Source: Haplodiscus bocki
Lineage: Eukaryota
Assembly: GCA_965655095.1 (NCBI GenBank)
Contig: OZ296659.1
Location: 54,684,001 to 54,748,000 of the forward strand
Length of the DNA: 64,000 nt
Reading direction: 5' to 3'
The translations under genes and the position numbers were made by a program. This document shows positions 20,394 to 53,561 of the stretch, one piece after another. Positions within the stretch are counted from its first letter, which is position 1, and each line of letters starts with the position of its first letter. The notes under the pieces were generated by a model. It worked only from the letters and a program-made list of their open reading frames with translations. It had not been told where the DNA came from and searched no databases.

Positions 20394-21447
20394 TATAAGG
20401 TAAGGTCTAAAAAAGAGTGAGTCTGAAAGTAGAAATTCCGCAAAAACAACAATAGTGTCGGTACCAGTTAAGAAGTATGGGGCGGTAGTAATCAAGATTG
20501 CTAACTAAATGAATCGGATTAAATTTTTTTCATTGGAATCGATCTGCACCTAAACTTCGTTGCTGTGCATACTGTTCGGTTTTGGCATAATAATAATCAT
20601 GATAGTTTTTTGAAGAGTAATTGCAGGCCTGTCGCGGCTGCATTGACGGCAAAAACACAAATGGTTGCTGAAGGAAGCTCAAAACGAAAAGATTCCTACA
20701 GTTTAGTACTCGGAGCTCTAAATCAAAAGGTAATTAGATCTTGAGATGCCGTTACAACTTCCGGCCTCTCGGTACAAAATCTGCAGTAATTCTAGGAGGA
20801 AGCGTGTCGAGTCGCAAATAAGTTGCATGTTCGGAAAGATAGTAATTTAACTTCTAATTTAACTTCGTGACTATCTCACTCCGCATTTTTGAGAACGAGC
20901 TATTGTTAGTTATCCCGCAGGCCTTCGTCTTCGTGCGAAGATTAAGTAACTCTAAACTTTCTGCAGGACAACGCGAACGCGCTAGATTTGCGATGCATAA
21001 ACATTGAGACAAAATGATCATTTTAGCATTGAGGGTCTTGAAATACTGCACCGTGATTTGTATTGACAGTTTGGCCGCGTCTGGGTGAGACGATGCGAAG
21101 TCTATCAAGACTTTTCCATAGAATATACCGAGATTATCTTTGCGTGGGTGCTTCCCCGGTTAAAAAACATTTTCTGCAGAGAGAAGCGCAAAAACCCTGA
21201 GATTCTTTCCCTAGCTTCGAATAATTTTGATGCGCTCGGCACTCCATGATTTCGTTTGAGATACTGCTTTTGACCGTTTACTCTAGATGACTATCCAATA
21301 CGCATTCTTTCTTTCAGTCAGAATGTGTAAAAAAAAGTTGTACACCTTTCACGTGAGAATTACTCAATGCTTGTAATGTTTACTGAAGGTGTCACTAAAG
21401 AAACTCGACTGAAAGTTCGACCGTTTTGGAACCTTTGCATCACGTTA

Positions 21448-21753
<306 letters not shown>

Positions 21754-23014: not shown

Positions 23015-24054
23015 GGATCCACCCCAAAACACCCAAAGTCCCAAAATACCAAAGGCCAAAATAACCAATGTCCCAAAATACCCAAGATTGAAAGAACAAC
23101 ACCAATTATGTAATTAAAAGCGTCTTAACATTAAAAGGACCTGAAATACTGGAATGTTGAAGAATTACTTAATTGATATCTTATTTATGACCGCAATATT
23201 ATTGCTTCTTACGATAAACTTCTATTTGCAATAATAAATAACAGTAGTATATGTTGGGGGGGGGGGGGGGTGTTGCCGCACAACTTCACGGCTCCCTAAA
23301 TTTCATCATAAATTTTATTCAATTTTCGAGCCAGAAAGGTTATTAAAGATGCCAACACATCGATATAGTTATGCTACAGTAAGAACAATGTATACAATTG
23401 GACCATACCAACAATGACTACTGAAGTTTGGCATTATTTCTCAAATAAAATCAGAACATGAAACAGGATAGGCATGGTGGCACAAGTGCTTAAGCCTGCA
23501 GTTCTGACCTCATAGTATCCGAATTCGAGGCCCGATCAAATCACTTGTATTACACTACTATTTTGATGCAATTGTAAAACTAACCAATTTTCTGAGAAAG
23601 CAAGGAGTAAATTACGTTGAAGATAAAAAATTGAAGATATTTTTGTTGCATATAATTGATACACCGACAGCCAACGAAATATGAATCAAAAAGTCCGAAT
23701 CTTTGCCATAAATTACACGAACATTGTCATACGTTCAAGAATTGAGACATCCTAAACAAAAAAGAACACATTCAATGAGAAGGCGTGGGAAATTTTTTAT
23801 ATCTCTAAAAGAGTTGTGAGAGTGTGTGAAAAGTTCAGATAAACTCCCCGATCAAATGTGGCAAAGTGACGGATTTATCACCATTCATTTTCCGCCAAGT
23901 CACTTTCCCAGCTATTTTAACGTTATCAATAGATCAGATTTAATTATAGTAAGGTTATTTTCTTTTAAGTCCACACGAGTTACTTTTTGAACGCATATTG
24001 CCATTAGATATCAATTTCAAAATTTCATAAGGGAAAGAATGCTCTATTGAACGA

Positions 24055-25951: not shown

Positions 25952-26625
25952 GCCCCGATCCCCATTGTTCCATGATGGCGGTGGGGCGCTCCGGCTCGGG
26001 CAAGACTAATATGGTCTCCCAATTACTGAAGTAACATCCCGAAATTTTTAGACTAAACTTTGAACACTTTGTGTATTTCTACAATCACTTTCAGCCAGTG
26101 TACCAAGATGTGCAAATAGCCGTAGGCGCTGAAGCGTTTCAGCTTTATCAAGGAGTTGACAGGCTCATCCTAGACAAATTCACAGCAACCAACAAACAAA
26201 CTCTCTTGATATTCGACGATGTTTTTCAAGACAGTTGTGGCTCGAAGAAATTTCTGAATCTAGCTATATCTGGACGTCATTAAAACTACACTTGTTAGTT
26301 CCTAAGCACAACTTATATCAAGTCACCAAACTCTAAAACGATAGACATGAACGTATCACAAATGCTACTACTTCGCAACCCAAGGGACACTACCCAAGTT
26401 GATTGTTTGAGGCGACAACTGGGATGTCGCGAATTATTGCCCAGTGCATATAAAAGAGCAACACAAGGGCAGTTTGGTCATTTGCTCACTGATCTAAATC
26501 CACGCTTGAACGAGCACCAACGTCTATCTTCAAACATACTCTCCAAACCAGCCATTTTCTATTGTAGCTCCAGCGATAAAGTGATACCTATAAATTATTC
26601 CTTCACAGCAATAAGTTATAAATGA
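25948..26625 (+). pseudogene. A32/FtsK-like genome-packaging ATPase
   Basis: Walker A AVGRSGSGKT, Walker B LLIFDD, SGRH motif, LLRNPRD..QV..L.RQL; internal stops. Confidence 0.9.
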
Positions 26626-30493: not shown

Positions 30494-31238
30494 TATTATT
30501 AACTGGGGTGACGCACCATCTCGGCCTACATAGGTCGAGCAGTGACTCTGCACCGACGTCTGGGGCCACAAGTGAGGCCCGTGATTGAAAGGGCATCGTT
30601 GCTGGTGATGAAATTCATTGTTGATTTTGTACGTTTGTCCATAGAGAAGGCACTTCTGAACGCACCGGTACATTACCTATAAAATGAAATGATGAACACA
30701 AGCTTCATCATTCAAGCCGGTCAAAACAGTTTTGCCAAGGAGAACTTATTTGGAACGGAACCAGTTAGAAGAATCACTCTTTGCATGACAGCCAACGAAC
30801 AATTCCGCGGAAAAAGCAACATGGATGCATTCCACTATCAAACATTCGGATTAGAGCGGCTAGAGATTACCCGCGGAAATGGTGTCCCAGTACCTGGCAC
30901 ACCTCTCGACACGAGGAATGGAAGAATGAGAGCCTAATACAACGCAATTTGTTCTTTGGGCTCTGCAGCTGGCTCTGGAGGAAACGGCATCAAGCTCAAA
31001 AATTTTGAGGACCATTTTGTGCTGGTGTTCGACATAACGTCTACGAGGGAGGCGTCAAAAAGCCTCACATTTTCCCCCGAGCTCACTGGAGCCAGTCTCA
31101 CATTGAAACTATCATTTGAACAAGCACTGGAAAAGACGGTTGATCTTTCTGTCATTGCCGAACGATTCAGTCAAATATTCATTGATTCGCACCGCAACAT
31201 TGCCAAACATTCACTACTTCAACAAATTTGTGCGGAGG
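30494..31238 (+). pseudogene. Major capsid protein (hexon, double jelly-roll), C-terminal half, copy 1
   Basis: IERASLLV..LSIEKAL, SFIIQAGQNSFAKENLFGTEPVRRITLCM, FHYQTFGL, HFVLVFDITST, PELTGASLTLKLSF; internal TAA at 30935. Confidence 0.85.
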
Positions 31239-31698
31239 ATGGACAATGTCACTTTGGAGCAATTAGTTCAGAGATGCAATCAATTGAGCGAACACTTGTG
31301 GAGTGTGGAGCGCCGACAACATTCCACCAATGGAACAGGGAGAATCATTTCAAAGAGTGAACACGGAAGTGAGCTGTAGCCCTGGCCGACACTGGATACT
31401 ACTTTGCACACAAAACGACTTTGCTCGACGTGCAAAAGCGGACATTGTTTTTTGGGACAAATTAGGGGAGAAACCAAAAACTTACAAAAAGCTCTACATG
31501 AGGCTACTTTGTTTCTATGACAAAATTTTTGCTTTCAACCATCTTCTTCAGGGCCGTTTCTCTAACTGCTGTGGACTATATTGCATATTGATGGCACACC
31601 ATCTACCATTCACATCGGATAACAAAAAGATTGCAAAAACATTGCCTAAGAGGATGGTTGATGAACTATCGCTGGTGCGTTCCATTATTCACCATTAG
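31239..31698 (+). pseudogene. Adenain-like (C5) maturation protease, copy 1
   Basis: WSADN, VNT....PGRHW, FWDKLG, LQGRFSNCCGLYC give the His/Asp/Gln/Cys signature. Confidence 0.88.
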
Positions 31699-32974
31699 AA
31701 GACTGATTATAACTTTGCAGCTGTATGACTAACTCAGTATTCTTGGTTTTCCACATCCTGCTACTCTACCACGCCCAACTCGGTGTCGTCGCAATTATGA
31801 AGATTAGTAGTAGTAGTGGTGGTACACTCCGGTCTGGCGCTTTTAGTTCTGTCAAAAACGCCATTTTTCGGGAAACGCCAAATATTCTCACCCCTCTCTC
31901 TGAAAAACGCCAGTAGCTTTATACATTCACATTTGTCAGCTAATTTTGTGTTTCAAGCTAGTCCGCTATGTTACCGCACTCCTCGACTGCTTTACTCGAA
32001 AGTTTGAGCTGAAAGTTATTTTCAGCTACTACTGGCTCTATTCGATAGTTATGAGGCACTTCTAGTTCAATAACGCCTGTCAAAAATTCTAAATCAGCCA
32101 TTTTATAGTTATTACTTCTCTCAGTGAGGACGAAATAGTATCTAGACTAGAAGTAAAGGACTAGAATCTGAATCAAATTCGGGATTACTATTTGAAAACT
32201 CACGGCTGCGATCATTTTTTTGGAATTAATATCTAAAGATTCTGATACTATTCGTTTTTCGATACCTGTTTTGAGAATAATATCTAAAGTCTTGGATACT
32301 TCCCCGTTTTCTGAATACCTGTTTTCGGGAAAATTTTTATTAAATCAATGTATTTCGGGGCGTCATGAACTATTAAAGAATTGCGGGTCGTCTTGAAGGT
32401 ACCAGCATTTTTTGTTGTGATATTTATTTTGATTAAAACAATGAGTACAAGGTCTAAATTAACTTGCGGTTCCTTCCCTACAGAAAACACTCCCCGTACT
32501 GCCTGTATTGAATTTGAGAAGTTTGGAATTAATCGAAAGCACAGTCACTAAAAAGTTTTGCATAGATCGAAAGAAAATTCAAAGCAAAACAAAAGAACGA
32601 GCTTCAAAAATGAAGAACGATACCGTTCCTGGTCCCTGAGTTGCTCATACGACAACCATCCTAAATTATTTGTAACAGCATAATACTCAACTTATGAACA
32701 ATCCATTTTGGACGTTTCATGGGGAAACAGGTATTCAGTCCTCATGGGGAAACAGAAAACGTCTTCATTCAGAGATAATAGAGAATTCTTTGATTATGAT
32801 TTATTAAAGATGAAAAGTCGAGAACAATGGTACAAGTGTCAACTAGGTTTCTCTGGTAGGCTCCTGTTACTTTCAAGAAAAATTCATTCTCTAGTTTTCA
32901 GGTGGCTGTTGTTTGTGTTGCGCGGAGTTGATTCCCGTTGGAATAAACCGCACGCTAGATTCTCAAAAAGGTTG

Positions 32975-33627
32975 TTATCCCGCGAAAAGCGGGATATTGC
33001 AATCACCTTCGTGTGTTTGTTTGTTAGCAGGATTTCTCATAAACTACTGGTCGGATTTTGATGAAATTTGGTGAGTAGGGAGGTAATGATCATAGGAAGA
33101 CCGAGTTCAAAGTTGGGCGTGATCCGGATTGAAATCCGGATCTGAGATCCGGATAACTGTTTCTCATGAACTACTGGTCGGATTTTGATAGTGGGAAAAT
33201 ATAGCCAGTCTTTTAGTGCAGTAGTGGTTCATACATATATACAACTTATTCCGACGATGACTTGCGCAAGGGTGGACGAGTGGTATATATGCGAGTCTCG
33301 GGAGATGAAGATTGTGGGTTCGATCCCCGGTGACAACAGATTTTTCAATTTTATATTTTGTTACTGTTCTGATCCGCGGGACAATTATAAAATTTCGTGG
33401 TCACCGGGGATTCAACCCAGAATCTTCATCTCCGGAGTCTCCCGTTTGCACCACTGCTGTACACTGCCAAGATGACTAGAGAAATTGTCGTTTTTAAATC
33501 TGTGTAAACGCAAAGACACAAAAAGGATCAGCGATCTGAAATATCAACGAATGGGTTAAGATCCAGGATATCGGAGTGTCCAAGGGCTTTCGCGGGATCT
33601 GCGCTCTCCGAGTGCCATTTTCTAGTT
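32975..33627 (+). mobile_element. Non-autonomous Helentron-type element (HINE/DINE-1-like)
   Basis: 5' subTIR ATCCCGCGAAA with hairpin, GTGTGTTTGTTTGTT microsatellite, CGGATTTTGATGAAATTTGG core, 3' subTIR TTTCGCGGGAT, GCGCTCtccGAGTGC hairpin, CTAGTTT end. Confidence 0.85.
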
Positions 33628-33864
33628 TCAATTGGAAACAAGCTGTTCGGCCTCTCCGAAATAACCGACTTTCGTTTTGATGAAAAGAAAGTGCCTCAAA
33701 GTAGGCATTTAGCCATTGGATATACCAGTTCTGTGCGTAACGGGGACAGAAATCTAATTTACAATTTTTTTTAGTGATTTGGTTCTGTTTATTGCATATT
33801 AATAATTTCTTGCAACCGATGCATTTTCAGATTTTCAATTTGTTGTGCAGTTCTCTCGGCTTCA

Positions 33865-34255
33865 ATGGAATCGAGGAGCCGGCGAAAAGTGAGTGGAATC
33901 CTCCACGACTCATATCGTCAGAATCCCTTAATTTTCCAAGATGGGGACCCCGATGACTTTATTGTCCAGGACACCGAGTTTGCTGGAAAAGGACTTTTCG
34001 CAAAGCGTTTTTTCCCGGAAAGGGGAGTATCTTTTGAACTACCGAGGTTACAGAAGGGATGACAACAATAGCGATACTGTGTACATGTTCGATGTTGGAA
34101 AACCCGAAAGCATAGTGATCGACGCAATGAGTAGACCCGATTGCATGGGGCGCTACATAAAGGATATTGACCCGTTTATTGTTCAAAATTGCCACCCGAG
34201 AAAACAAGTCAATAAAAACAAGGGGGTTCTTACTTGCTTTTTTTGCCAAGGAGAA
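33865..34255 (+). pseudogene. SET-domain (PR-Set7/KMT5A-like) methyltransferase fragment
   Basis: FAGKGLFAKRFF/KGEYLLNYRG...VYMFDVG....VIDAM....CMGRYIKD....NCHP. One frameshift; truncated where hexon copy 2 begins. Confidence 0.8.
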
Positions 34256-35313
34256 TTTGTTTGGAAAGGAACCAGTTAGAAGACTCACTCTGCATGAAAG
34301 CCAACGACGAATTCCGCGGAAAAAGCAACATGGATGCATTCCACTATCAAACATTTGGATTAGAGCGGCTAGAGATTACCCGCGGAAATGGTGTCCCAGT
34401 ACCTGGCACACCTCTCGACACGAGGAATGGAAGAATGAGAGCCTAATACAACGCAATTTGTTCTTTGGGCTCTGCAGCTGGCTCTGGAGGAAACGGCATC
34501 AAGCTCAAAAATTTTGAGGACCATTTTGTGCTGGTGTTCGACATAACGTCTACGAGGGAGGCGTCAAAAAGCCTCACATTTTCCCCCGAGCTCACTGGAG
34601 CCAGTCTCACATTGAAACTATCATTTGAACAAGCACTGGAAAAGACGGTTGATCTTTCTGTCATTGCCGAACGATTCAGTCAAATATTCATTGATTCGCA
34701 CCGCAACATTGCCAAACATTCACTACTTCAACAAATTTGTGCGGAGGATGGACAATGTCACTTTGGAGCAATTAGTTCAGAGATGCAATCAATTGAGCGA
34801 ACACTTGTGGAGTGTGGAGCGCCGACAACATTCCACCAATGGAACAGGGAGAATCATTTCAAAGAGTGAACACGGAAGTGAGCTGTAGCCCTGGCCGACA
34901 CTGGATACTACTTTGCACACAAAACGACTTTGCTCGACGTGCAAAAGCGGACATTGTTTTTTGGGACAAATTAGGGGAGAAACCAAAAACTTACAAAAAG
35001 CTCTACATGAGGCTACTTTGTTTCTATGACAAAATTTTTGCTTTCAACCATCTTCTTCAGGGCCGTTTCTCTAACTGCTGTGGACTATATTGCATATTGA
35101 TGGCACACCATCTACCATTCACATCGGATAACAAAAAGATTGCAAAAACATTGCCTAAGAGGATGGTTGATGAACTATCGCTGGTGCGTTTCATTATTCA
35201 CCATTATAAGACTGATTATAATTTTGCAGCCGTATGACTAATTCAGTATTCCTGGTTTTCCACATCCTGCTCCTCTACCACGCACAACTCGGTGTCGTCG
35301 TCATCGTGAAGAT

Positions 35314-35325
<12 letters not shown>
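34242..35325 (+). repeat. Second copy of hexon C-terminus plus adenain (34748-35237); duplicate of 30731-31815
   Basis: Near-identical ORF translations at offset ~3509, sharing the same hexon stop codon and protease frameshift. Confidence 0.95.
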
Positions 35326-35346
<21 letters not shown>

Positions 35347-35351
35347 CAGTA

Positions 35352-38300
35352 TTGTTATCGATGACAGTTTAAAGTCCTAGTAGTAGTTGGTAGCATGACA
35401 CTTTAAAGCATCAAGGACTTTAAATTGTCATTTTAAATTGGACCTGCCATTTTCAAAAATCTGAGCGGCTCTAACTACCAAATATTAACTTGGGTTGATT
35501 CAGAAAACCCGAAGACACTGTTTATAACTTTCGGAAAGCTTCTGAAAAAGGTTTTTTTAAAAGTAGTAGATGACATTTTTTGGTGACAATTTGGATTTTC
35601 TGTTGGCTGGAGGGCCAATTTGAATCGTCTCCAAACCTTTAAAATGGACTTCACACCAAGTGAGTAGCAAGTGTATCTGTCGGTCATAAGTGACAGCTGT
35701 GACAAATAAAATCACAACAAGATATCACTTTTGACCAGCTTAATGTATTTTTAAAGAGGCTCTCAGTTTGGAGATCGCATTGTGTCACCCATAACAAGCC
35801 CCCACGAAGAGAACATAGCCTCTGAAGGGTTTCGTAAATTTGTTAATGAATATACATGAATGGGATATTCCACAGGTCATTTTTCAGATAGCAGACCAGC
35901 AGTCAATCGCCCGTTTGTTCAAAAGTCACTTGATACGGTAATTGCACCATACAGAACGCGAAAAGAACAAGTGCTTCCGAAACTGTCCCATAAATATTTT
36001 ATAGAACAAATTTCAAAATCCTGCCATCCATCATGGGACAACAACTTGGACTCAATTTCAGCGTTTCCATAGTAGTTGAAGTGTTGCAAAAATATCAGAA
36101 GCACCTCGAGAAAATCCGAAAGTACAAATTGCCATTAATTAAATTCTCATGAATATTATTATATACCGTCAATGAAAACCCCGAGATGTCTCAGACATGA
36201 TTACCTCTCACATGTTATAACACTTACGAAATTTTTGGAACACTTGCAGAATAATATGTCAAATTTCGATCGAAACTTTGAAAAAACTGCCATGAAATTC
36301 CAAATAAACTCTGTGATAAAACTCTGCGTAACATGGCTTAACTGAAACGATATTTTGAGTTTTTGTATATCCCAAAACCTTTTTTTTCACCTAACTTGAA
36401 TGATCTGCGCTCCAACTCTGTTAACTCATTTAACTCTCTAAAACTGATCCAACTCTGTATAACTGGTGATATTCTATATGTAAGAAAGCTCTAAGTATTG
36501 AAGATGGGTGAAATAACAAAGTAAAAAAGTGAACTAACAAAGTTAGTTCATTCGATTATGTATTAATTATATTTTATGACTATAAACTCTATAAAATTAT
36601 AAAAAGATACGATAACTATAAAAAGAGTTTAACTATTCAGCCGCTTATATTTGAAGGCATCCATTGCGGTGTATACATGTATTTTAGCCCGTTGAATAAT
36701 TTTGCTTAATTTCTACGCGATGAATAGTCGCTTTTCTATTTGTTGGTCTGGCTATCACACTACCTCCAGTAAACGTCATTTACAAACGAGATTTAAGAAC
36801 ATCATTGCATTAATTTCTGTAATAAAAGTTGTTGAAAATATTACGGATTAAAACAAAACAAAAATTAACTCTAGTGAGGATCGAACTTGCAACCCTCTAC
36901 TTCTTAGGCCAATTTACTTTCCACCACACCACAACACCTTATCAACTTGTCCTTCATTTCTATATTTTATTACAAACAACGCTGAATAAATGCTTCAGTA
37001 TATGAGCATGTGTTTGAGAGACAAATATCGAATCTCTGCCTTTTATTTTTAAATACTCTTTGCCTCGATTGTTTGCCTTCATTTGTACGAAGTTCAATAC
37101 ACCGAAAATTAATTATGGTTTGTAAAAAAACACAAACACACACTAAGCTGATCTTGAATAAGGTGTAATTAGGGTCTTTTCCGTTTTTCCCCCCAGCGGA
37201 AACTTGAACCATACTGCTCAGCTGAGCATATCAGCTAGGGGGGGGAAATAATAATTTTGTCAGTAGGGCTGGGGGGGGGGGGAAGAAACGGAAAAGACCC
37301 GTGTAATTTACATCTAACGATGAAACACGAGCTCACAGCTAGAAACATATCAAGTCACTACCGTTGGCTCGGTTACAAAAAATATACAATCAACTTAGGT
37401 GCATATTAGGCAAATGAACTCATTTAAAGCAAAAAAAAATAGTTTTAATAAAATTTGAAATCGACAGCAAGTACAAAATGAACAAGCTAAGTCCATTTTT
37501 TATAAATGAAATGAGAAATTTATTTTTGTTCACTTGCCCACAAAACTTAATTATTTGGGAAAAATCTGGTCAACATACAATTAATGATAAAGGTCTATAT
37601 GTTCTATAATTTAATAGGAGTAAGATTTGAACACGCCATGATGCGCGCTCTGATTCGACGGAAATTCATGCTATTTTCGCGGCGTGGTTTTATAGTATGC
37701 TTGCTTGTAGACCCAAATTTTAGCTGACAGCCAATCAGATTGCGAGAAAGTGGTTGAACCGAAACGAAATCCAAACAGAACCGATTTTTTTGGAATTCAA
37801 CTTTCTATCCAGCTCGGGACTAAAACAGGGGCTAATAAAATACTGCTAATTAGCGATATTTGTGGCCTTGAGTGATAGGTGGCGAAGCGAAGCGAGCCAC
37901 TCGGCCCAGGAAGCTAGTATTTTTATAACTCCCACCTCACCATCCACTGATTGAATTTCAGAGCTAAAAATTTCACTGCGAGATTTCATATGAGAGTGAG
38001 AGATATGAACTATAGATTGCATCGTTAGAATAAAAACTAACTTATTGTTGGCTATTTTGACCAACTGAATAAATTCATCAAAAAACTGGTTATTGACGAA
38101 TTTATTCCCTTTTTAAAAATATATATATATTATGGATCAAGAATAAAGCAAAATTTGTTGCATATCAATATTAATGATTGAAACATTATCCGAAGTCGAA
38201 AGTCGACTTACAAGTTTTGTAGACATTTTGTACAATTTTGGCTGAGGTTGGCGGTAATTTACATTTTTGACCCACTGTACATGTATATGAATTTCCTGAA

Positions 38301-40438
38301 AAATTTCATTTTTTTTGGATCTTGAATTTTAATTTTAAATTTAATGCAAATTTTTTTCATAATACTCTATATTTCAAAACAACTGCGCCATTTTTAACTT
38401 TTGCTGTATTGGTCCCAAAGTCTTGAAACAAAAACGATTGTAAACTAGATAGAAATCTAAGAAACTTTTCTCTCCACCAAAAGTAACCATTTCGAATAGT
38501 TTCAGGTATTGATGTCAAAGTTGGTCAATTTATGGATCGGATCTCCTTTTTTTAAAACACTACTGTACATGTAGTGAACAAGCCATGTGTACATGTATTT
38601 AGTGTGACATGTAGTGACAGTGTAGTCACTACACAGTGTGTGAGCTGTGAACATGTAATAATTAAACAAGCTGCTTGTAGTTAAACGTAATAACAAACAC
38701 AGCTTCACTGTGAAGTGTGACTCTTTCACTAATTACACTTAATTAATAACTCACCGCTGAAAAACCAAAAATATTAATTCAATTATAAGAGTTCACAAAA
38801 TTATTTTCCCAACCTGATCTTCTGGATTGGTATTCAATACTTTGAAAATGAATCTTTCTTCCCATTACTGCTTCATTCCCATTCAATAAAAAAATACAAT
38901 AATTTGATTCAAGAGAAATTAAATCAAAACAAACTCAAACTAGCTCCCCGTCCACTTCTTCAACCCCTCACTCTTCAACTCTTCAACCCCCCACCCCCCC
39001 CCCCACTTACACAGTATTTTTGGCTTTCAAACATTACGCTGCTTATTATTCCGCTTACGCATTATGATGTGGAAGGGGGGAGGAGGAGGGCTATGGGGAG
39101 TTAATTGGTGGGGTGAGGGGGTGGGGGGCAAATTTTCAGGACTATTTACAAAATAGGTGATAAAACAGCTATGAAGGAATGAATCTTTGGACTGAAATTG
39201 CAAAATTATTAGGAGAAATTTTCCAATGTCAATATCTCTCTCAACTACCCATGCTCTGCGACACATATGAGCAGAAAACGTAAAATTATGAAATTTTTAG
39301 GAAACGAAAAAGAGTATCATCATTCAATGCTAATTCAATGCTGAAAACTGGCGCCAATTTGAAGCCAACCAAAGAGGTCAGAAAATTTGAATTTCCGGCG
39401 CGAAAATTCGAAGAAAATTTCATTATTAATAATTTTGATTGCTCGTCATTTATTCCCTTTACTCAGAAAATAATTTTTATTCACATTTCTCCGAAAAATT
39501 TTAGACATTACTCCGAGAACCTAATGAAATATTAGAAAGTTTGTTTTTTCAGACAATGGAATAATAAAAATTGAGGGTAGTTGAATCCAGACATCACCGA
39601 TTTCTGCAACCCCCATTTCTGCAACACCCCATTTGTGCAACTCGGCTCCCCCATTTCTGCAGTTCTCCGCTTTCTGCAATTCTGCAACACGCTGCCGCAT
39701 TTTCGAACCCCCCCCCCCCCACCCACACAGAGACACACACACGCACACACACATTCGCAGACCCACTTCTTCAGTCTCTTCCACCGTAATTGTTCAATAC
39801 CCACACTTGAGTGAAGAATTAACGAAAGGGGTGGGTGAATGAAGACACAAGCTAACAATGGGTGACGGAAGTGAGAAAACAATGGGGGAGTAAACCGACC
39901 GCCATTGACCTGTTTATGAATTCTCTCAGAAATTTCAGGGTTGAAGCAAACGCGCCTACTTGTAGTGATGAGGAAAAGGAAGCATGACTGCTCTTCAAAA
40001 AACTGCAAGGGGACAGGTTCCAAATCGGAAGTGGGGAAAAGACGCAAGAAGGGGGCTACCAAATAACTGCCCTGCAATATCATCACGGGTCGATTTTTTT
40101 AGATTCGCCGTTGTTTTTCTAAGATCACCGGTAAATGTTCCCGTTTCATTTTTTCCAGTAGTGTGAATCCACTGTGGGATTTTCTTTAATCTCCGAACAA
40201 ATGAGGTACCGTTTAATGGTAGAAGTTTTCCTTTTGACGTTTTTTGCCAACCAATGAACCGTGCAGACTGTCTAAAATTTTAAAATGGCTGAGCTACCAA
40301 CTCGGTAGTAACAACGAAATGACATTTTAAACCCTAATACCGGGTATTAAGTACATTTTAAAATGTCATTAATGCCAATAGTGACACTTTAAAATGTCAT
40401 GCTACCACCATATTTTCCTTTAAATTGTCATCGATAAC

Positions 40439-40440
<2 letters not shown>
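35352..40440 (+). mobile_element. 5.1-kb non-coding TIR element, copy 1, in (GTA)n
   Basis: Ends TTGTTATCGATGACAGTTTAAAG / CTTTAAATTGTCATCGATAACTA are inverted repeats. GTA repeats on both sides; no credible long ORF. Confidence 0.85.
37603..37917 (+). mobile_element. Short non-autonomous Helitron inside the 5.1-kb unit (also ~42846-43160)
   Basis: TCTATAAT start, GTGGC..GCGAAGC..GCCAC hairpin, CTAG|T end. Confidence 0.5.

Positions 40441-40500
<60 letters not shown>
40441..40500. repeat. (GTA)20 microsatellite spacer
   Basis: Perfect 60-bp GTA array between the two copies; a ~(GTA)12 array precedes copy 1 (35316-35351). Confidence 0.98.
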
Positions 40501-43500
40501 TTGTTATCGATGACAGTTTAAAGTCCTAGTAGTAGTTGGTAGCATGACACTTTAAAGCATCAACGACTTTAAATTGTCATTTTAAATTGGACCTGCCATT
40601 TTCAAAAATCTGAGCGGCTCTAACTACCAAATATTAACTTGGGTTGATTCAGAAAACCCGAAGACACTGTTTATAACTTTCGGAAAACTTCTGAAAAAGG
40701 TTTTTTTAAAAGTAGTAGATGACATTTTTTGGTGACAATTTGGATTTTCTGTTGGCTGGAGGGCCAATTTGAATCGTCTCCAAACCTTTAAAATGGACTT
40801 CACACCAAGTGAGTAGCAAGTGTATCTGTCGGTCATAAGTGACAGCTGTGACAAATAAAATCACAACAAGATATCACTTTTGACCAGCTTAATGTATTTT
40901 TAAAGATGCTCTCAGTTTGGAGATCGCATTGTGTCACCGATAACAAGCCCCCACGAAGAGAACATAGCCTCTGAAGGGTTTCGTAAATTTGTTAATGAAT
41001 ATACATGAATGGGATATTCCACAGGTCATTTTTCAGATAGCAGACCAGCAGTCAATCGCCCGTTTGTTCAAAAGTCACTTGATACGGTAATTGCACCATA
41101 CAGAACGCGAAAAGAACAAGTGCTTCCGAAACTGTGTCAAATATTTTATAGAACAAATTTCAAAATCCTGCCATCCATCATGGGACAACAACTTGGACTC
41201 AATTTCAGCGTTTCCATAGTAGTTGAAGTGTTGCAAAAATATCAGAAGCACCACGAAAAATCCGAAAGTACAAATTGCCATTAATTAAATGCTCATGAAT
41301 ATTATTATAAACCGTCAATGAAAACCCCGAGATGTCTCAGACATGATTACCTCTCACATGTTATAACGAAATTTTTGGAACACTTGCAGAATAATATGTC
41401 AAATTTCGATCGAAACGTTGAAAAAACTGCCATGAAATTCCAAATAAACTCTGTGATAAAACTCTGCGTAACATGGCTTAACTAAAACGATATTTTGAGT
41501 TTTTGTATATCCCAAAACCTTTTTTTTCACCTAACTTGAATGATCTGCGCTCCAACTCTGTTAACTCATTTAACTCTCTAAAACTGATCCAACTCTGTAT
41601 AACTGGTGATATTCTATATGTAAGAAAGCTCTAAGTATTGAAGATGGGTGAAATAACAAAGTAAAAAAGTGAACTAACAAAGTTAGTTCATTCGATTATG
41701 TATTAATTATATTTTATGACTATAAACTCTATAAAATTATAAAAAGATACGATAACTATAAAAAGAGTTTAACTATTCAGCCGCTTATATTTGAAGGCAT
41801 CCATTGCGGTGTATACATGTATTTTAGCCCGTTGAATAATTTTGCTTAATTTCTACGCGATGAATAGTCGCTTTTCTATTTGTTGGTCTGGCTATCACAC
41901 TACCTCCAGTAAACGTCATTTACAAACGAGATTTAAGAACATCATTGCATTAATTTCTGTAAAAGTTGTTGAAAATATTACGGATTAAAACAAAACAAAA
42001 ATTAACTCTAGTGAGGATCGAACTTGCAACCCTCTACTTCTTAGGCCAATTTACTTTCCACCACACCACAACACCTTATCAACTTGTCCTTCATTTCTAT
42101 ATTTTATTACAAACAACGCTGAATAAATGCTTCAGTATATGAGCATGTGTTTGAGAGACAAATATCGAATCTCTGCCTTTTATTTTTAAATACTCTTTGC
42201 CTCGATTGTTTGCCTTCATTTGTACGAAGTTCAGTACACCGAAAATTAATTATGGTTTGTAAAAAAACACAAACACACACTAAGCTGATCTTGAATAAGG
42301 TGTAATTAGGGTCTTCTCCGTTTTTTCCCCCCAGCGGATTATTTCCCCCCCCCAGTCGAAGCTGTAGCTGCTGCTACCAGTGTACATGTATTTATTCACT
42401 GAATACGTCTTTCGCGAGTCAGTAGACAGTGCACGCAATTCACAAATCTCAAGTACCTTCCAAGAAGCTGACTGCTTGCTGAAGCTAGTTAAAGTAAACA
42501 AACAGGTATTTGCAATAACTTTATTAAGCAGAAACTTGAACCATACTGCTCAGCTGAGCATATCAGCTAGGGGGGGGGGGGGGGGAATAATAATTTTGTC
42601 AGTAGGGCTGGGGGAAGAAATGGAAAAGACCCGTGTAATTTACATCTAAAGATGAAACACGAGCTCAAAGCTAGAAGCATATCAAGTCACTACCGTTGGC
42701 TCGGTTACAAAAAATATACAATCAACAAGTTAAGTCCATTTTTTATAAATGAAATGAGAAATTTATTTTTGTTCACTTGCCCACAAAACTTAATTATTTG
42801 GGAAAAATCTGGTCAACATACAATTAATGATAAAGGTCTATATGTTCTATAATTTAATAGGAGTAAGATTTGAACACGCCATGATGCGCGCTCTGATTCG
42901 ACGAAAATCCATGCTATTTTCGCGGCGTGGTTTTATAGTATGCTTGCTTGTAGACCCAAAGTTTAGCTGACAGCCAATCAGATTGCGAGAAAGTGGTTGA
43001 ACCGAAACGAAATCCAAACAGAACCGATTTTTTTGGAATTCAACTTTCTATCCAGCTCGGGACTAAAACAGGGGCTAATAAAATACTGCTAATTAGCGAT
43101 ATTTGTGGCCTTGAGTGATAGGTGGCGAAGCGAAGCGAGCCACTCGGCCCAGGAAGCTAGTATTTTTATAACTCCCACCTCACCATCCACTGATTGAATT
43201 TCAGAGCTAAAAATTTCACTGCGAGATTTCATATGAGAGTGAGAGATATGAACTATAGATTGCATCGTTAGAATAAAAACTAACTTATTGTTGGCTATTT
43301 TGACCAACTGAATAAATTCATCAAAAAACTGGTTATTGACGAATTTATTCCCTTTTTAAAAATATATATATATTCTGGATCAAGAATAAAGCAAAATTTG
43401 TTGCATATCAATATTAATGATTGAAACATTATCCGAAGTCGAAAGTCGACTCACAAGATTTGTAGACATTTTGTACAATTTTGGCTGAGGTTGGCGGTAA

Positions 43501-45689
43501 TTTACATTTTTGACCCACTGTACATGTATATGAATTTCCTGAAAAATTTCATTTTTTTTGGATCTTGAATTTTAATTTTAAATTTAATGCAAATTTTTTT
43601 CATAATACTCTTTATTTCAAAACAACTGCGCCATTTTTAACTTTTGCTGTATTGGTCCCAAAGTCTTGAAACAAAAACGATTGTAAACTAGATAGAAATC
43701 TAAGAAACTTTTCTCTCCACCAAAAGTAACCATTTCGAATAGTTTCAGGTATTGATGTCAAAGTTGGTCAATTTATGGATCGGATCTCCTTTTTTTAAAA
43801 CACTACTGTACATGTAGTGAACAAGCCATGTGTACATGTATTTAGTGTGACATGTAGTGACAGTGTAGTCACTACACAGTGTGTGAGCTGTGAACATGTA
43901 ATAATTAAACAAGCTGCTTGTAGTTAAACGTAATAACAAACACAGCTTCACTGTGAAGTGTGACTCTTTCACTAATTACACTTAATTAATAACTCACCGC
44001 TGAAAAACCAAAGATATTAATTTAATTATAAGATTTCACAAAATTATTTTCCCAACCTGATCTTCTGGATAGGTATTCAATACTTTGAAAATGAATCTTT
44101 CTTCCCATTACTGCTTCATTCCCATTCAATAAAAAAATACAATAATTTGATTCAAGAGAAATTAAATCAAAACAAACTCAAACTAGCTCCCCGTCCACTT
44201 CTTCAACCCCTCACTCTTCAACTCTTCAACCCCCCACCCCCCCCCCCCCACTTACACAGTATTTTTGGCTTTCAAACATTACGCAGCTTATTATTCCGCT
44301 TACGCATTATGATGTGGAAGGGGGGAGGAGGAGGGCTATGGGGAGTTAATTGGTGGGGTGAGGGGGTGGGGGGCAAATTTTCAGGACTATTTACAAAATA
44401 GGTGATAAAACAGCTATGAAGGAATGAATCTTTGGACTGAAATTGCAAAATTATTAGGAGAAATTTTCCAATCTCAATCTCTATCTCTCTCAACTACCCA
44501 TGCCCATGCTCTGCGACACATATGAGCAGAAAACGTAAAATTACGAAATTTTTAGGAAACGAAAAAGAGTATCATCATTCAATGCTAATTCAATGCTGAA
44601 AACTGGCGCCAATTTGAGGCCAACCAAAGAGGTCAGAAAATTTGAATTTCCGGCGCGAAAATTCGAAGAAAATTTCATTATTAATAATTTTGATTGCTCG
44701 TCATTTATTCCCTTTACTCAGAAAATAATTTTTATTCACATTTCTCCGAAAAATTTTAGACATTACTCCGAGAACCTAATGAAATTTTAGAAAGTTTATT
44801 TTTTCAGACAATGGAATAATAAAAATTGAGGGTAGTTGAATCCAGACATCACCCTTTTCTGCAACCCCCATTTCTGCAACACCCCATTTGTGCAACTCGG
44901 CTCCCCCATTTCTGCAGTTCTCCGCTTTCTGCAATTCTGCAACACGCTGCCGCATTTTCGAACCCCCCCACCCACACAGAGACACACACACGCACACACA
45001 CATTCGCAGACCCACTTCTTCAGTCTCTTCCACCGTAATTGTTCAATACCCACACTTGAGTGAAGAATTAACGAAAGGGGTGGGTGAATGAAGACACAAG
45101 CTAACAATGGGTGACGGAAGTGAGAAAACAATGGGGGAGTAAACCGACCGCCATTGACCTGTTTATGAATTCTCTCAGAAATTTCAGGGTTGAAGCAAAC
45201 GCGCCTACTTGTAGTGATGAGGAAAAGGAAGCATGACTGCTCTTCAAAAAACTGCAAGGGGATAGGTTCCAAACCGGAAGTGGGGAAAAGACGCAAGAAG
45301 GGGGCTACCAAATAACTGCCCTGCAATATCATCACGGGTCGACTTTTTTAGATTCGCCGTTGTTTTTCTAAGATCACCGGTAAATGTTCCCGTTTCATTT
45401 TTTCCAGTAGTGTGAATCCACTGTGGGATTTTCTTTAATCTCCGAACAAATGAGGTACCGTTTAATAGTAGAAGTTTTCCTTTTGACGTTTTTTGCCAAC
45501 CAATGAACCGTGCAGACTGTCTAAAATTTTAAAATGGCTGAGCTACCAACTCGGTAGTAACAACGAAATGACATTTTAAACCCTAATACCGGGTATTAAG
45601 TCCATTTTAAAATGTCATTAATGCCAATAGTGACACTTTAAAATGTCATGCTACCACCATATTTTCCTTTAAATTGTCATCGATAACTA
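40501..45689 (+). mobile_element. 5.1-kb non-coding TIR element, copy 2
   Basis: Near-identical to 35352-40440, same ends, head-to-tail. Confidence 0.85.
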
Positions 45690-46133
45690 GTAGTAGTGGT
45701 AGTAGTAGAGTCAAAACTTTCATCACAACTGTAATTAGTATGTGGTCCGTGTTCCTCTTCGGTTTCACTAAGAATAAAATGACATTTCCCTTGTGTACAA
45801 CGGCATCATCATCGCCAAAATTTGAAAGATTGTCAAAATCTACATTGTTGGATGATGAAAATTCATCGTCATCATCAGATCGCGGAATGAATCCAAGGTC
45901 GATTGAGCCTAAAACGTAATCAAAAACAAAATCATGAGCAAAACGACAAAACAAAAATTCGAAGCCGTACAGAAACTAGCAGAAAGTGGCACAACTGTAA
46001 CAGTGTCCTTCTCGCTTTTTGCGGGTTCCTTGTACGATGGTGATATACAAGGAGAAACTCGTCTTCGTCGCGTCCATATTGTCGTCAGAGCTTTCTGACT
46101 CCGCGCAAGCGCTGGGCAAATCTGTAAGAACAT
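45690..46133 (-). pseudogene. Acidic ORF downstream of pPolB; its C-terminus continues at ~35243-35315 beyond the insertion
   Basis: IDLGFIPRSDDDDEF (compare APDPGF in the second Polinton). Joining the flanks gives ...DESFDSTTTTTT|NLHDDDDTELCVVEEQDVENQEY*. Confidence 0.65.
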
Positions 46134-46181: not shown

Positions 46182-49100
46182 TTATGTAGTACTTGTTTGG
46201 TTGAGGGAGTAATGACCGTGAGCAAGGGGTTGAAGTCCACCTTCCAATACAAAACGTTTGTCGTCGCATGCACTCAAAGCAATTTTTTCTTCGAGTCAAA
46301 ATAATTTGATGCTGTTGCGAGTGAATTTGAAGCACAGATCTCTCAAGATTGTTTTTTCCGCCAGAACTTCAGTGAAGAAATCGTGATGTAGTTTTTTGAC
46401 AACCTTTTGGATGCATCTGGCGCTCTGTTTCAAACCTAATACTTTATAGCTTGGAACGAAGGCAGGTGCACTCAAGCATCACTTTTCCATTCAATTCGTC
46501 TTTCATTGCGAGAGGAACTTTTTGTTGCTGAGGTCAAAAAACTTGTGCGTTTTCGGATAATCAGAGAGGTCGAGCAAATTCTTGAAGGATTCCATGTCTG
46601 AGCACAAGTCGTCTGTTTGAATACGGTACAAAAGGGACTAGGTCTTTATAAACAACTGTGAGGTTGCTTCCAAACCTTGCGTCATTACATCGTAATGGAG
46701 GTCGTACAGAACTATTTGGGAAAAATTTTTATTGCTGCTCGGACAGGTGTGGTTTTAATCCAGAAAATTGACGAATGCGTTAAGTTGAGAGATACTAAAG
46801 TGTAGTGAAAAAATTGGAAAGCTAGGAAGTCGGGTTTGAGTGTGCACAACTTGGCCTCCATTGGAGTAGACAAAAACTTGGTTTGTGTACGGTTTCTCAG
46901 ATTATCCATTAATTTGCCAAAACAAGCGTTTGAGAGCAGTTTGGAAAAAAAATGTCGAAGTCAGTTTGGGAATTTTTCCTCATTTCGGTATTTTTTGAAA
47001 TATATGTCCCCAACCAACAGCTTCGGTCAAACTGTAAAACGCGATGCAGTTTGGTTACTGTTAGGCCTTGTTCGACATAAAACTTCAAGTTTCAAAAGTG
47101 GCAAACGTAGAAAAAACTATCAAAAAGGGTTTCAACAAGTTTCGCTACCCCTGAAGTCGGGTAGCCAAAAGATAGAGCATAGTCTGACAACCATTCACTT
47201 ACATTCAACTTTTCAGCAGCCAAAGGAAAACCGTCATGAAAATCGTGTAAACTGCTGGGGTACTGCAGGTCATTTTCGACAAAAAAAAATCCACACCACT
47301 AAAGGAGTCGGTATACAAAACATCATCGATCATCAAGTCTGTTCCCCATTTATAATTACCCAATGGAAGAGGTTGTTGCATTGTTCCGGCATATAAGGAG
47401 GTGACATCAAAAAAAGCGCCATACACGGAAGGCTTGGAGGAATCGATATTTGTCATATATTTATTGTTAGCTTTGAAGTGTCTCATCAAGGCACCGTTTC
47501 CATTGATACCGCCACGTATAGCTCGTTCACAAAAAAGAAGCATGTCAATATCAGTCAAAAGTCCGAGTTCCACTTTAGTACCGATGAGCATTCCTTCCCA
47601 GCTGAAATTTGAAGCCAAAGAGAAAAGAGCGGGATCGAGTTGATATTCCTTCCAGTCAACTTCGCGATACCTGCGAGAAGATAGACATCAAGAGTCAAAT
47701 ACAGGTCAAGATATTCACCAAAGTTCTTGCAACCCATCAAATCGTAGATTTCTTTTCCTTTTTGATAATGCACTTCGGTAATATCAACTTTCCCCGTTAG
47801 GTTAATTGTCCAAGAACTTCCATAGTCAGGGAACGGCGAATCAAACTTTTCAAAACTATCCAAAAAAACTGTGAGGGAAGTAACCCTTTACTCGAGGTTT
47901 TTCAAAATTATCATCGCTCAAAGATCAAAATTTTCGCCACAGGTACAGAAGCTCAGAAGTCGCCATTGTCTTTGCTAAACCTTCAAGAATTTGAGACATG
48001 AATTGAAAGCTGTCCAGAAACCTGATTTCGCTGTATCAAGGAACAACTCTCCCGTCTTTGCACGTGTACTGTGAAACTTTCATGCGAAGACTAAAGGAGA
48101 TATAAACCTCATCTGTGCGGCTGATGGCTGAAAGTTTCTCATCTATCAACAAAATCAGTTGCTTTACAATGTGGTGAGTGTCATACCTCTCGAGATTATG
48201 GAAAAACACTGGAAGGAAGCGTTTAGTTCTTGCTTGGAGATTGCATTTCGAGGGAGCAACACCAATGATTTTTCGTGAAGAATGACAGTGATGAACAACT
48301 GAGCATGTTTGAACCACTTCACCGCAGATGCAACATTTTGCTCCGTTTGCTGTCTCAGTCATCTGCTTTTGCTGTTGAGTGCTGAGAACATCACTCAGAT
48401 ATCTGTATTTTTGACTTTCCGAGTCACACCACGCAAGCCACCTTCGATGCAGATTCATCAGTTTACTGATACAGTCTTCGCCACGACAGAAGGATTCTGC
48501 AACAACAGAGTTTGTTCGACAGTCAACGGGAAAATCAGCGTAGCTTGCAAGATATTGCTTTTCAAAAATAACAGTCTTTTTCTCTTTTTCTATATCTGCT
48601 GGAACGTTTAGCGCTTCCAAGTCGGCATACCCAACAAACGGACATTCTCGGGTCTTTTCCCAATTGTCGAACTTCAAGTTTTTTATCTCCGTTGGGAATA
48701 ACAATTCTCAATGGCTGGTTGTCCTCGCGCAGTCTGACATGATCACGGTACTTAACTTTCCCAATTGATTGCATACATTTAACGCAAAATTTCGTTTTGG
48801 GACCTTTCATAGCTTCCTGCGGAGAAAGGCACAAGCTATGCATGAAATGTTGAAAACTAGTTATGAGACAATCATGAGAGTTAAGACCGTCTGTTAGCAG
48901 CAAGAGAAACACTTCGAATTTTGGCTTTTACTTCACTTCGATGACAACATATTAGGCTTCCCTTTTCATCGAAATTGAACATTGTTATCGAAAGTTGGTT
49001 TTTATTCTCAAACTGTGCAATAACGCTTCAACTAGTTGGCATGGCAGATTTGTCGAAAACAAGTCGATTGAATTTATCTTTGTACATGGATGGTCTCTCG

Positions 49101-50541: not shown

Positions 50542-51568
50542 ATGGACCGTTTTCTAGCAATTATTTTTCACGAATCTCGAGAAGTCACAGTTCTTGAAAT
50601 TGGCAACGAAGGCAACCCGGAGGAAATAAACATCAAAGTACTGAAGAAAAGGGTCGACGAAATTGGTGAAGCCGGTAGTCAATGGGACTAAGGGCACATT
50701 CCCTCAAAAAACGTTCACCAATTTGATGCGCATCAACAGGACGAATTTTTTTCAATGCTGGGAATGTCTGAGGTGCCGGAGGACATGAAGGTTCCATCGC
50801 GGCCGGACGATGAGGTCGGTCTCCAGAATGAATCCCGGTTCACAACAGCAATCTTCTTGACAGCGATGAATAAACAATCAGGTGAGATGAATTAAATTCC
50901 ACAAAACCTAACTCAAAGTCAAAACATTGAAGATAATGCTAGCAAGGCAGAACAAAGACTTTTGTAACTATAAGTGATAAAGCATTCATCTTTAAAGGAG
51001 TATTATACTGAAGCTTCAACATTAGTTCACAAATATTGATTGAATTGAATGTTTAGGGCAAAGAACGGCATTTCGAGCGTGTGTCAATATTTTGAACAAC
51101 AACTGCCATACCAGGAAGTCGGTGTATGTGACCCTAAGAGAGTTCAAATAAGAAGCTGAATTCTCACAATATACGAGCGCCGGGCAGGTCATCATTCTGC
51201 ACCACTGCTAAATGATGAAACTTATACAAGAATACAATGCATACACAGATGCGAGAGTGGGACGACTAGAAGAGGATGCCGCGGATGAGAAAATCGGCGG
51301 CGGCGAGGAGGAGGAGGAGGAGGAGGAGGAGGAGGAGGAGGAGGAGGAGGAGGAGGAGGAGGAGGAGGAGGAGGAGGAGGATGAAGAAAGGCCTTACGTT
51401 GTTTTTAGGCCGCCATCAAAAAGGCCACGAAAGCCAACTGCGACCGCAACAATCAAGAGAATTACCAAAAAGACACCCCTTAAACAGATAGAAAGCGTGG
51501 CGTCAAGCTCTACTGCCACAAATCTGCCACAGGAAACTCCAGAATTTACGCTTGACAGCCATGAATAA
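50542..51568 (+). pseudogene. Two-exon Polinton accessory gene with poly-Glu tract
   Basis: ATG 50542; G|GTGAGA..TTTAG intron 50882-51056 whose removal keeps the frame into the poly-Glu ORF; three in-frame stops. Confidence 0.55.
51306..51380 (+). repeat. (GAG)~25 microsatellite
   Basis: Perfect GAG run encoding poly-Glu. Confidence 0.97.
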
Positions 51569-52559
51569 GATGGATCAGAATTTACGCTTGACAGCCATGA
51601 ATAAGATGGATATATGAGATTATATAACTTTGAAGTTGGTTAATGGCCTATACATACATTCTACATTGTACCTCAAATACTATCAAAAATGAATTTATGA
51701 AGGAAAACAGTCTTCTTTCGGGCGACTACATTCGAATTAGCAAAAATTAGTCGGAAAATTGAGAGAAAAGTGATTGAACTGAAACAGGATCGCGAAAAAT
51801 TATTGAGAACAAAAGTAGTATCTTATGATCTCGGTTGGTTTCGACCGCCTGAAATGCAGAACAGTTGAATTTCAATCTGGTTGCAGAGCTGAAAATCGAA
51901 AGATTCTATGGATGCGAAAATGAAATAGGCAGGAAAATTCAAAAGCTCAAAACCCCTTCCAATTTTGTTTCAAACGCGCCAACACTAGCGCGATAAACCA
52001 TTTGGTCCCGAATTCGCAACTTATATGAAATCCCAGTTGAATAAACCACCAGGCTACAGGCACCATTGCTGTGAAATGAAACTAACCGATTATATGTACA
52101 GCTCATCTGTGTAACAGCACCGTTTAATAGTTCAACTGTATTAGGTAGAACAGCGTATAAAGGAATATAAATGAACTGCAATCACAATCACATCTTTATG
52201 GCTTATGTAGCGGCTATATAAACTTTAAGTATTCACTCAGTATTTGATTTGTAATACTATGTCAAGGACAAAAGAAATGAAACAATGACGAAATTTAGGG
52301 AGCCATCGAGTTTTGCGGCAACCCCCCAACATATACTACGTCGTAACATTAAAAGGACCTAAAATAGTGAATGTTGAATAATTACTTAATTGATATCTTA
52401 TTTATGATGGCAAGATTATTGCTTACAATAAACTTTTATGTGCAATAATAAATACACTGTACAAAATTACCGCACTCAGGATCAAATTTGCAAAAATTCA
52501 CCCTTTTGAAATTTTTCTTTTAAAATTTTCTTTTGAAATTTGAAAGTTTTCCTTAGTAA

Positions 52560-53305
52560 CGAAAATTTTGTTGGGGGTCACAATTTTGTCTCACAGTGTC
52601 GATGTCGAAAAATTTGTGAGGTGAATTACAATTTTGTATCGCAGTGGCGAGAAATTTGTGAGGTGGATTACAATTTTTAGAAAATTATATTGTGTGAAAA
52701 TTTTTTGGACAGAAAATACGGAATTTTGGAACTGCAAGTTTCCGTTGATTTTATACAGAAAACTAGTTTTGAATTTTTCAAGAATCTTTTTCCGTTCAAG
52801 GTTTTTTGTAATAATTTTGACTTGCGGTACTTTATTTTGACACCACTAATATTTGAAGGGTTCCACCCCAAAGTCCCAAAATACCCAAGGCCAAAAACTT
52901 CTATACGCCATTATAAATACACTGTACAAAATCACTACCACATCTAGGATCAACTTTGCAAAAACTCACCTTTTTGAAATTCAAAGTTTTCCAAATTACC
53001 GAAAATTTTGTTAGGGGGATCACAATTCTGTCTCACGGTTGAGAAGTCTTTGTGAGGTGAATTACAATTTTGTCCCACATTGCCAAAAAGTTTGAGAGGT
53101 GAATTACAATTTATGTCTCACAGTGTTGAAAAATTTGAGGTGAATTACAATTTTATCTCAAAGTGCCGAAAAATTTGTGAGGTCAATTAGTGTATTGTCC
53201 CACATTGCCAAAAAGTTTGAGAGGTGAATTACAATTTTGTCTCACAGTGTCGAAAAATTTGTGAGGTGAATTACAATATTATCTCACAGTGCCGAAAAAT
53301 GTGTG
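52560..53305 (+). repeat. ~42-bp minisatellite (AAAAATTTGTGAGGTGAATTACAATTTTGTCTCACAGTGTCG) in two blocks within a larger duplicated unit
   Basis: About 3 units at 52560-52680 and about 7 units at 53000-53305; the leader ATAAATACACTGTACAAAA..GGATCAA is repeated at ~52447 and ~52913. Confidence 0.9.
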
Positions 53306-53561
53306 GGGTACCCCCGTGTATACCCAACTTTTTGAACTTCGCGGCTGTTTTTCTGTTCAACGTAATTTTCTGAGAATATTTTGACTTGTGGTATTTTATT
53401 TTGCCAGCACTAATATTTTAAAACATCAATAAACTCAAATAATTAGAGGCGTCTTGAAACTTCTAGTTCAAGACGCTGTTAATTCTCTAATTAATATCGC
53501 TATTCAATCTTGGGTATTTTGGCCTTGGATATTTTGTGCTTGGGTATTTTGTCCTGCCACC

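Follow-up and report, generated by a model that had tools for sequence, protein, structure and literature searches.

Two head-to-tail copies of a young, non-autonomous inverted-repeat element in a GTA microsatellite of Haplodiscus bocki

We analysed a stretch of 64,000 nucleotides of Haplodiscus bocki DNA (contig OZ296659.1, positions 54,684,001 to 54,748,000 of the forward strand; hereafter the window, in whose own numbering all positions are given) and found, by comparing the window with itself, two near-identical copies of one ~5.1-kb element lying head to tail within a (GTA)n microsatellite. Copy 1 (35352-40440, + strand, 5089 bp) and copy 2 (40501-45689, + strand, 5189 bp) are 99.1% identical and have the same end architecture, with ends that read TTG...CTA when the GTA frame is taken as the border. 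This is a real, young, non-autonomous element with terminal inverted repeats (TIRs), and the positions of its two copies, at a single site, indicate that it probably targets (GTA)n.

The ends of the element are sharply defined. A terminal inverted arm of 21 bp, matching at 20/21 bases, pairs 35354-35374 with 40418-40438, and the arm pattern occurs four times in the window at three or fewer mismatches, compared with 0.02 occurrences expected from 100 shuffles. One unit further inward, a second inverted arm pairs 35388-35413 with 40382-40407. A 13-bp motif is confined to the same regions: all 16 of its matches in the window at no more than one mismatch fall within the four element ends, three in each left end and five in each right end. 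The left end of copy 1 (35354-35431, + strand) holds the terminal arm, an internal (TAG)3 at 35378-35386 and the start of the second arm at 35388, with 13-bp motifs at 35361 (+), 35395 (+) and 35419 (-); its right end (40319-40438, - strand) holds the inner and terminal arms and motifs at 40319 (+), 40357 (-), 40381 (+), 40388 (-) and 40419 (-). An earlier note on this DNA, made from the sequence alone, had described two head-to-tail copies with inverted ends, and the arms confirm this. It had also offered TAG...CTA ends of the kind that terminate Academ elements, but both left ends begin TTG and only the right ends read CTA, with a mismatch at the second base in both copies. We read the element, with its short TIRs and its clustered, putatively protein-binding subterminal motifs, as a non-autonomous DNA transposon mobilised by an enzyme encoded elsewhere, and we infer that this enzyme would bind the 13-bp motifs.

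Aligned with one another, the copies have 4930 matching positions, 45 substitutions (23 of them transitions) and 12 indels, among which are 195 bp found in copy 2 only and 89 bp found in copy 1 only. A nested insert resembling a miniature inverted-repeat transposable element (MITE) lies at 37172-37300; its inverted ends are 23 bp long, it is flanked by a direct repeat of 8 bp, and it is 195 bp longer in copy 2. Both copies also contain a nested Helentron-like end, recognised by eye at 37870-37925, and a nested 16-bp tandem unit at 39590-39700.

All three GTA tracts around the copies are read on the + strand. Copy 1 is preceded by A(GTA)10 GCA GTA (35315-35351), the copies are separated by a perfect (GTA)20 (40441-40500), and copy 2 is followed by the short remnant GTA GTA GTG GTA GTA GTA (45690-45707); the flanking units thus number 12 (one of them GCA), 20, and 2 before the GTG, in agreement with the tract lengths given in the earlier note. 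The tracts are nearly pure, with one change in 97 bases, and the four junctions all have the same phase and orientation, consistent with a mode of insertion into (GTA)n/(TAC)n in which phase and orientation are fixed. In such a period-3 target the junctions are compatible with 0, 2, 3 or 5 duplicated bases.

Tracts of this kind are rare in the window. Over the 53.6 kb that lie outside the site, TAGTAGTAG is found twice on the + strand and not at all on the - strand, and both occurrences are in a paralog of this same tract, which also contains the only other run of at least three TAG units there. As the paralog has a short tract without an element, an insertion landing at random in such a ~20-bp site would have a chance of about 4e-4 by our own arithmetic, and the preference for (GTA)n proposed in the earlier note is upheld to this extent. 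The ends of the element may themselves echo the target. The internal (TAG)3 is present in both left ends (in copy 2 at 40527-40535), one 34-bp unit inside the tip, and this unit resembles flank plus tip, with 27/30 bases matching the real junction when aligned by hand. Its inner 21 bases agree at 20/21 with the right end's inner arm; because it is the right inner arm and not the left tip that this part matches, the unit has the look of an old feature of the family's architecture. The 460 terminal bases of copy 1 contain RGTAG/CTACY 10 times where 1.2 would be expected, both motif and span having been picked post hoc, and a GTAG-type motif common to ends and target may guide the choice of site. 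RNA genes were considered as the element's target and rejected, as the window has no Rfam match at gathering score.

The paralog deserves a closer description, as the earlier note had called it a duplicate and had judged the length of the original target with its help. It covers 30730-31824 (+ strand), corresponds to 34241-35333, spans the insertion site without an element, and ends in the tract A(GTA)3 GTG GTG GTA (31806-31824, + strand). The two sequences have no differences over their middle 834 bp, 10 in the first 118 bases and 12 in the last 124, so that the DNA immediately preceding the tract is ~10% diverged, and the similarity stops at the tract. With this divergence the paralog is too distant to be the true empty site or a recent duplicate and, judged by its sequence, it is a sibling and not the pre-insertion allele. 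The 834 bp of perfect identity between diverged ends could reflect gene conversion between sibling Polintons (large DNA transposons, to one of which the surrounding DNA appears to belong; see below) or an assembly chimera. Two other readings of these sequences were rejected: that a further, related insertion lies where the paralog stops (31824), since no end motif is present there, and that the tracts are AGTAGT termini of the Polinton type belonging to the element, since the right end does not carry the repeat in inverted form.

No enzyme could be detected in the element. Pfam scans gave no relevant match for any of its 61 open reading frames (ORFs) of at least 40 aa, and 12 six-frame read-throughs yielded no enzyme, the best matches, DUF5711 and VPS13_C, lying under the cut-off. 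Tyrosine recombinase, DUF3504 and integrase models had no match among the 61 ORFs, the 12 read-through frames and six pieces searched against Pfam, PHROGs and NCBIfam, and for the element pieces these three libraries and the PDB returned only weak, unrelated matches. For a right-hand segment (39856-40236) the search covered the family libraries. The left-hand segment 35755-36342 (+ strand) found only three short, domain-free relatives, of 61-81% identity, among 1.84 billion representatives, which indicates that it is repeated in other assemblies; comparison with longer proteins gave 0/32 and 0/6293 candidates at E<=10, and the ESM Atlas returned only unnamed hypothetical clusters for an element segment. 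The database relatives of the left segment scored E=2.5e-4 for SPOB_a and E=1.5e-4 for an argonaute model, both far under the cut-off, and an LRH-like motif seen in it by eye has no support from hidden Markov models. The segment may be non-coding, and it may be either a part of the element or nested in it. A search of prokaryotic genomes with the arm pattern produced one match, in a Chlamydiae metagenome-assembled genome, with ~27 shared bases and no GTA flank, which is at chance level. These results support the proposal of the earlier note that the element depends on an enzyme acting in trans, having no detectable enzyme domain of its own.

What kind of enzyme this would be is finely balanced. 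The CryptonV tyrosine recombinase has the catalytic residues R-H-R-Y, and a non-autonomous copy need not retain the recombinase gene. Such an enzyme might use an excised circle as its substrate and cross over within a short TAGTA overlap; TAGTA can be read as a 5-bp direct repeat around copy 2 and, with one mismatch, around copy 1. We lean slightly towards this mechanism because in both copies the two tips disagree at their second base and because microsatellite-specific insertion is stated for some CryptonV families (Kapitonov and Jurka, 2012, Repbase Reports 12:2034, cited in the excerpted text of PMC8869645). If the arms are joined over a single TAGTA, the spacer is 7 bp long and lies in the window of 6-8 bp given for tyrosine recombinases in part of PMC3212892; we rejected this as support, as any series in steps of three reaches 6-8 once.

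Ordinary cut-and-paste by a DDE transposase, with a 3-bp GTA or a 2-bp TA duplication and an AcademX-, Zator-, Harbinger- or CACTA-like enzyme, comes close behind, at a little less than an even chance. TIRs with arrays of subterminal motifs are in keeping with it, and a 3-bp GTA duplication fits both junctions. The mismatched tips TTG and CTA count against it, fitting neither TAG...CTA nor the CAC or GG starts of CACTA and of Zator/Harbinger elements, and no transposase remnant was found in the searches above. Duplications of 3-4 bp for AcademX and 3 bp for Zator are described in the excerpted text of PMC10045372. The junctions, being compatible with duplications of 0, 2, 3 or 5 bases, do not discriminate between a recombinase and a DDE enzyme. 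Like the earlier note we prefer a recombinase to cut-and-paste, but only narrowly, on the strength of the unequal tips and the analogy with CryptonV.

We also weighed a non-autonomous Helitron2/Helentron, whose rolling-circle copying could leave tandem arrays without a target duplication. These elements have asymmetric inverted repeats, with the hairpin beyond the 3' repeat. On the minus strand a 5' T, insertion before T and the lack of a required duplication can be read here, and both element ends can fold into hairpins (z -2.2 to -4.1), features listed for Helentrons in part of PMC8969392. The inverted repeats, however, extend to within 2 bases of either tip, with the hairpins inside them; these hairpins are just inverted copies of the 13-bp motif, and the copies stand 20 target units apart instead of being directly joined. 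We regard this origin as very improbable.

For the history of the pair, the account we favour, with somewhat less than even confidence, is that two members of the family inserted successively into a tract that had already been lengthened by slippage. A short run of Thr codons in a dead Polinton would have expanded by replication slippage, as the nearby (GAG)25 probably did, and the two insertions would then have followed in turn, neither contributing more than one GTA unit. If the elements are set aside, 34 units precede the GTG, compared with three in the paralog, leaving ~30 units to explain. The (GAG)25 (51305-51381, + strand) is perfect, lies in the same Polinton span with no element adjoining, and falls in a Glu run of an open, Glu-rich frame (51212-51568, + strand), so that it serves as an internal control for slippage. 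Among the 21 runs of at least three trinucleotide units outside the site, 18 have three units, two have four, and one is this perfect 25-mer; slippage alone can therefore make such tracts here, though rarely.

Several observations weigh against successive insertion by a recombinase into a tract grown by slippage. Multi-copy subterminal motifs are typical of DDE elements, and neither a recombinase nor a transposase remnant turned up in the ORF, read-through, family and protein searches. The evidence comes from one locus, growth from ~3 to ~32 units is a large change, and 20/21 of the background runs have only 3-4 units. The element has TIRs, whereas Crypton groups A, I, F and S are described without them in the excerpted text of PMC3212892, an absence that also speaks for a DDE enzyme, and tyrosine-recombinase transposons lack them according to part of PMC3627910.

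Alternatively, there could have been a single targeted insertion that was later duplicated in tandem where it lay, the GTA tracts to its left and right having undergone unequal crossing-over or single-strand annealing with each other. We give this roughly one chance in four. It predicts exactly the observed order of left tract, copy, hybrid tract, copy and short right remnant, and it accounts for the common TTG tip and the common nested inserts; the 45 substitutions are evenly spread along the copies (chi-square p=0.22, ten 500-bp bins), and the window contains other local tandem duplications (19942-20394, 94%). Set against this, perfect homology in the right remnant extends over only ~8 bases before the GTG, and the single GCA of the left tract is missing from the middle one, which calls for a later mutation (plausible at 0.9% divergence).

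The same events bear on the suggestion of the earlier note that each copy carries or generates its own tract. Here the element would bring (GTA)n at its left end, for example as a circle junction, or would lengthen the tract at each round and then re-insert there. Both left tracts are indeed long (12 and 20 units), as compared with two units in the right remnant and three in the paralog; their near-purity resembles that of young sequence, and the internal (TAG)3 sits in the left end. The case weakens on inspection. The paralog that would represent the original tract length is ~10% diverged at the site, with its similarity stopping at the tract, and (GAG)25 is a pure, long tract that arose here unaided. 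There is also an effect of ascertainment, in that an element with a preference for long tracts will turn up at those rare tracts that have expanded, and a recombinase crossing over beside its arms would not normally be expected to take along 10-20 flanking units. Finally, the two long left tracts are perhaps not independent: under duplication in place across the tracts the middle tract copies the left one, and the two cases become one event. Self-seeding is in our estimate unlikely, at about one chance in six, and we do not follow the earlier note on this point. If it were true, each insertion would leave 10-20 GTA units on one side as the landing site for the next copy, trinucleotide microsatellites would be seeded genome-wide, and the unit with the internal (TAG)3 would be its fossil trace. 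Our literature search found no (GTA)n-specific or self-seeding DNA transposon, with Repbase Reports, the usual place for such families, and most subscription journals outside its coverage.

There is a small chance that the pair is an assembly artefact in which two alleles of one insertion were joined head to tail at the microsatellite. A difference of 0.9% with indels is within the allelic range of many invertebrates, and the neighbouring paralogs have their odd 834-bp perfect stretch between diverged ends. Conversely, the junction is base-precise, there is no duplicated flank and no N in the window, and the right tract is too short for an overlap. Other histories of the pair are, taken together, about equally improbable.

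Among known systems, CryptonV is a lineage of microsatellite-inserting DNA transposons with a named enzyme (excerpted text of PMC8869645). The element resembles this animal lineage in its microsatellite insertion, and a recombinase would explain its fixed orientation and unequal tips; it differs in that no tyrosine recombinase is detectable in it. Groups A, F, I and S of Crypton, as described in part of PMC3212892, have at most terminal direct repeats of 4-6 bp, unlike the 21-bp TIR found here. The MiM group and rice Micron are non-autonomous inverted-repeat elements situated in microsatellites, and their transposase is stated to be unknown in the excerpted text of PMC3964958. They are plant MITEs with poor TIRs in (TA)n or (CA)n/(GT)n, whereas our element is ~5.1 kb long, has a clear 21-bp arm and occupies a trinucleotide repeat. 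Dada elements provide a parallel for the stacking: they are target-specific, tandem insertion at one target has been reported (PMC3706591, in part), and a motif common to end and target has been proposed as a guide to the site (PMC3706591, PMC8869645, both in part). They differ from our element in lacking TIRs, in their 6-7 bp duplications and in their targets, which are small RNA genes.

The left tips of our element, TTG, depart from the TAG of Academ termini, and its arms are terminal at both ends with the hairpins inside, unlike those of Helitron2/Helentron. The 3-4 bp target duplication of AcademX is compatible with the junctions, as 0, 2 and 5 bp are, and the excerpted text of PMC10045372 does not mention microsatellite targeting by AcademX. 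By analogy, then, the element appears to behave like CryptonV or the plant MiM/Micron elements in its choice of microsatellites and like Dada in its stacking, and the features tested for Dada, MiM, classic Crypton, Helitron2 and TAG...CTA Academ elements are not those it has.

In eukaryotes, DNA transposons with a specific target are said to be little known (PMC8869645, in part). A young family such as this, whose ends are clean and whose target is a trinucleotide, would be an exact bait for the autonomous partner. A review ties the origin of microsatellites to the tails of retrotransposons that lack long terminal repeats (LTRs; PMC8232201, in part), and carriage of the tract, if true, would be a DNA-transposon route to making them. 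At present, the site is one well-preserved locus of an already known kind of behaviour.

The surroundings of the pair suggest insertion into a decayed Polinton-like element. Polintons are recognised by a protein-primed PolB, an A32 ATPase, a protease, capsids, an integrase, long TIRs and a 6-bp duplication. Within likely limits of 23243-52339 we found weak Pfam matches in a fitting order, all under the curated cut-offs: an A32-like ATPase (26035-26280, + strand; Pox_A32, E=0.0075), a protease-like frame (34797-35234, + strand; cysteine-protease-like ElaD-SseL, E=0.064), PolB pieces (47208-47687, - strand; DNA_pol_B_2, E=0.003) and an EndoVII (48039-48707, - strand; Endonuclease_7, E=0.001). 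Other motifs, recognised by eye, we take to be those of Polinton capsid, protease and polymerase. The Polinton span gave no integrase match, and a PDB search of its proteins gave no relevant one. Its ends show only a short terminal inverted repeat (near 23243 and 52339), with 5 differences in 55 bases outside a G-run, and no 6-bp target duplication was seen there. These likely termini, the left one starting AGTAGT, are flanked by a 120-bp direct repeat of 88% identity (23121-23309 and 52285-52454). After subtraction of the element pair and the duplicated block the Polinton would measure ~15 kb, and the longest open frame in the window is at most 238 codons. The element copies, 0.9% apart, are much younger than a Polinton with 5/55 differences in its inverted repeats, so that the landing place was probably already dead, and the Polinton would be an incidental landing site.

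Within it, the protease-like frame ends ~80 bases before the pair, which interrupts the Thr codons of a short, acidic frame on the minus strand. The earlier note had placed the site in a poly-Thr tract of a minus-strand Polinton ORF: each flank, translated separately, does read as Thr codons on the minus strand. The acidic ORF is itself broken and has no Pfam or family match.

Between the paralogs, 31825-34240 is occupied by 2.4 kb of mixed repeats, including an inverted repeat at 33279-33455. By eye we also noticed there what resembles the 3' end of a Helitron (near 33600-33630) and, at 33932-34243, a SET-like peptide, for which there is no Pfam match. Elsewhere in the window, we noted a decayed Helitron Rep/helicase (3146-5601, + strand; Helitron_like_N, E=1.7e-21; PIF1, E=3e-13), an LTR-retrotransposon integrase zinc-binding piece (8670-8996, - strand; E=9e-7), a tandem pair of ~960 bp, 69% identical, at 11256-13405, a piece resembling an exon of mitochondrial elongation factor G (21448-21753, - strand; GTP_EFTU, E=2.8e-8), which taken with the repeat content points to a eukaryotic and probably animal source, and a 42-bp minisatellite at 53000-53320 with a higher-order period of 125 bp.

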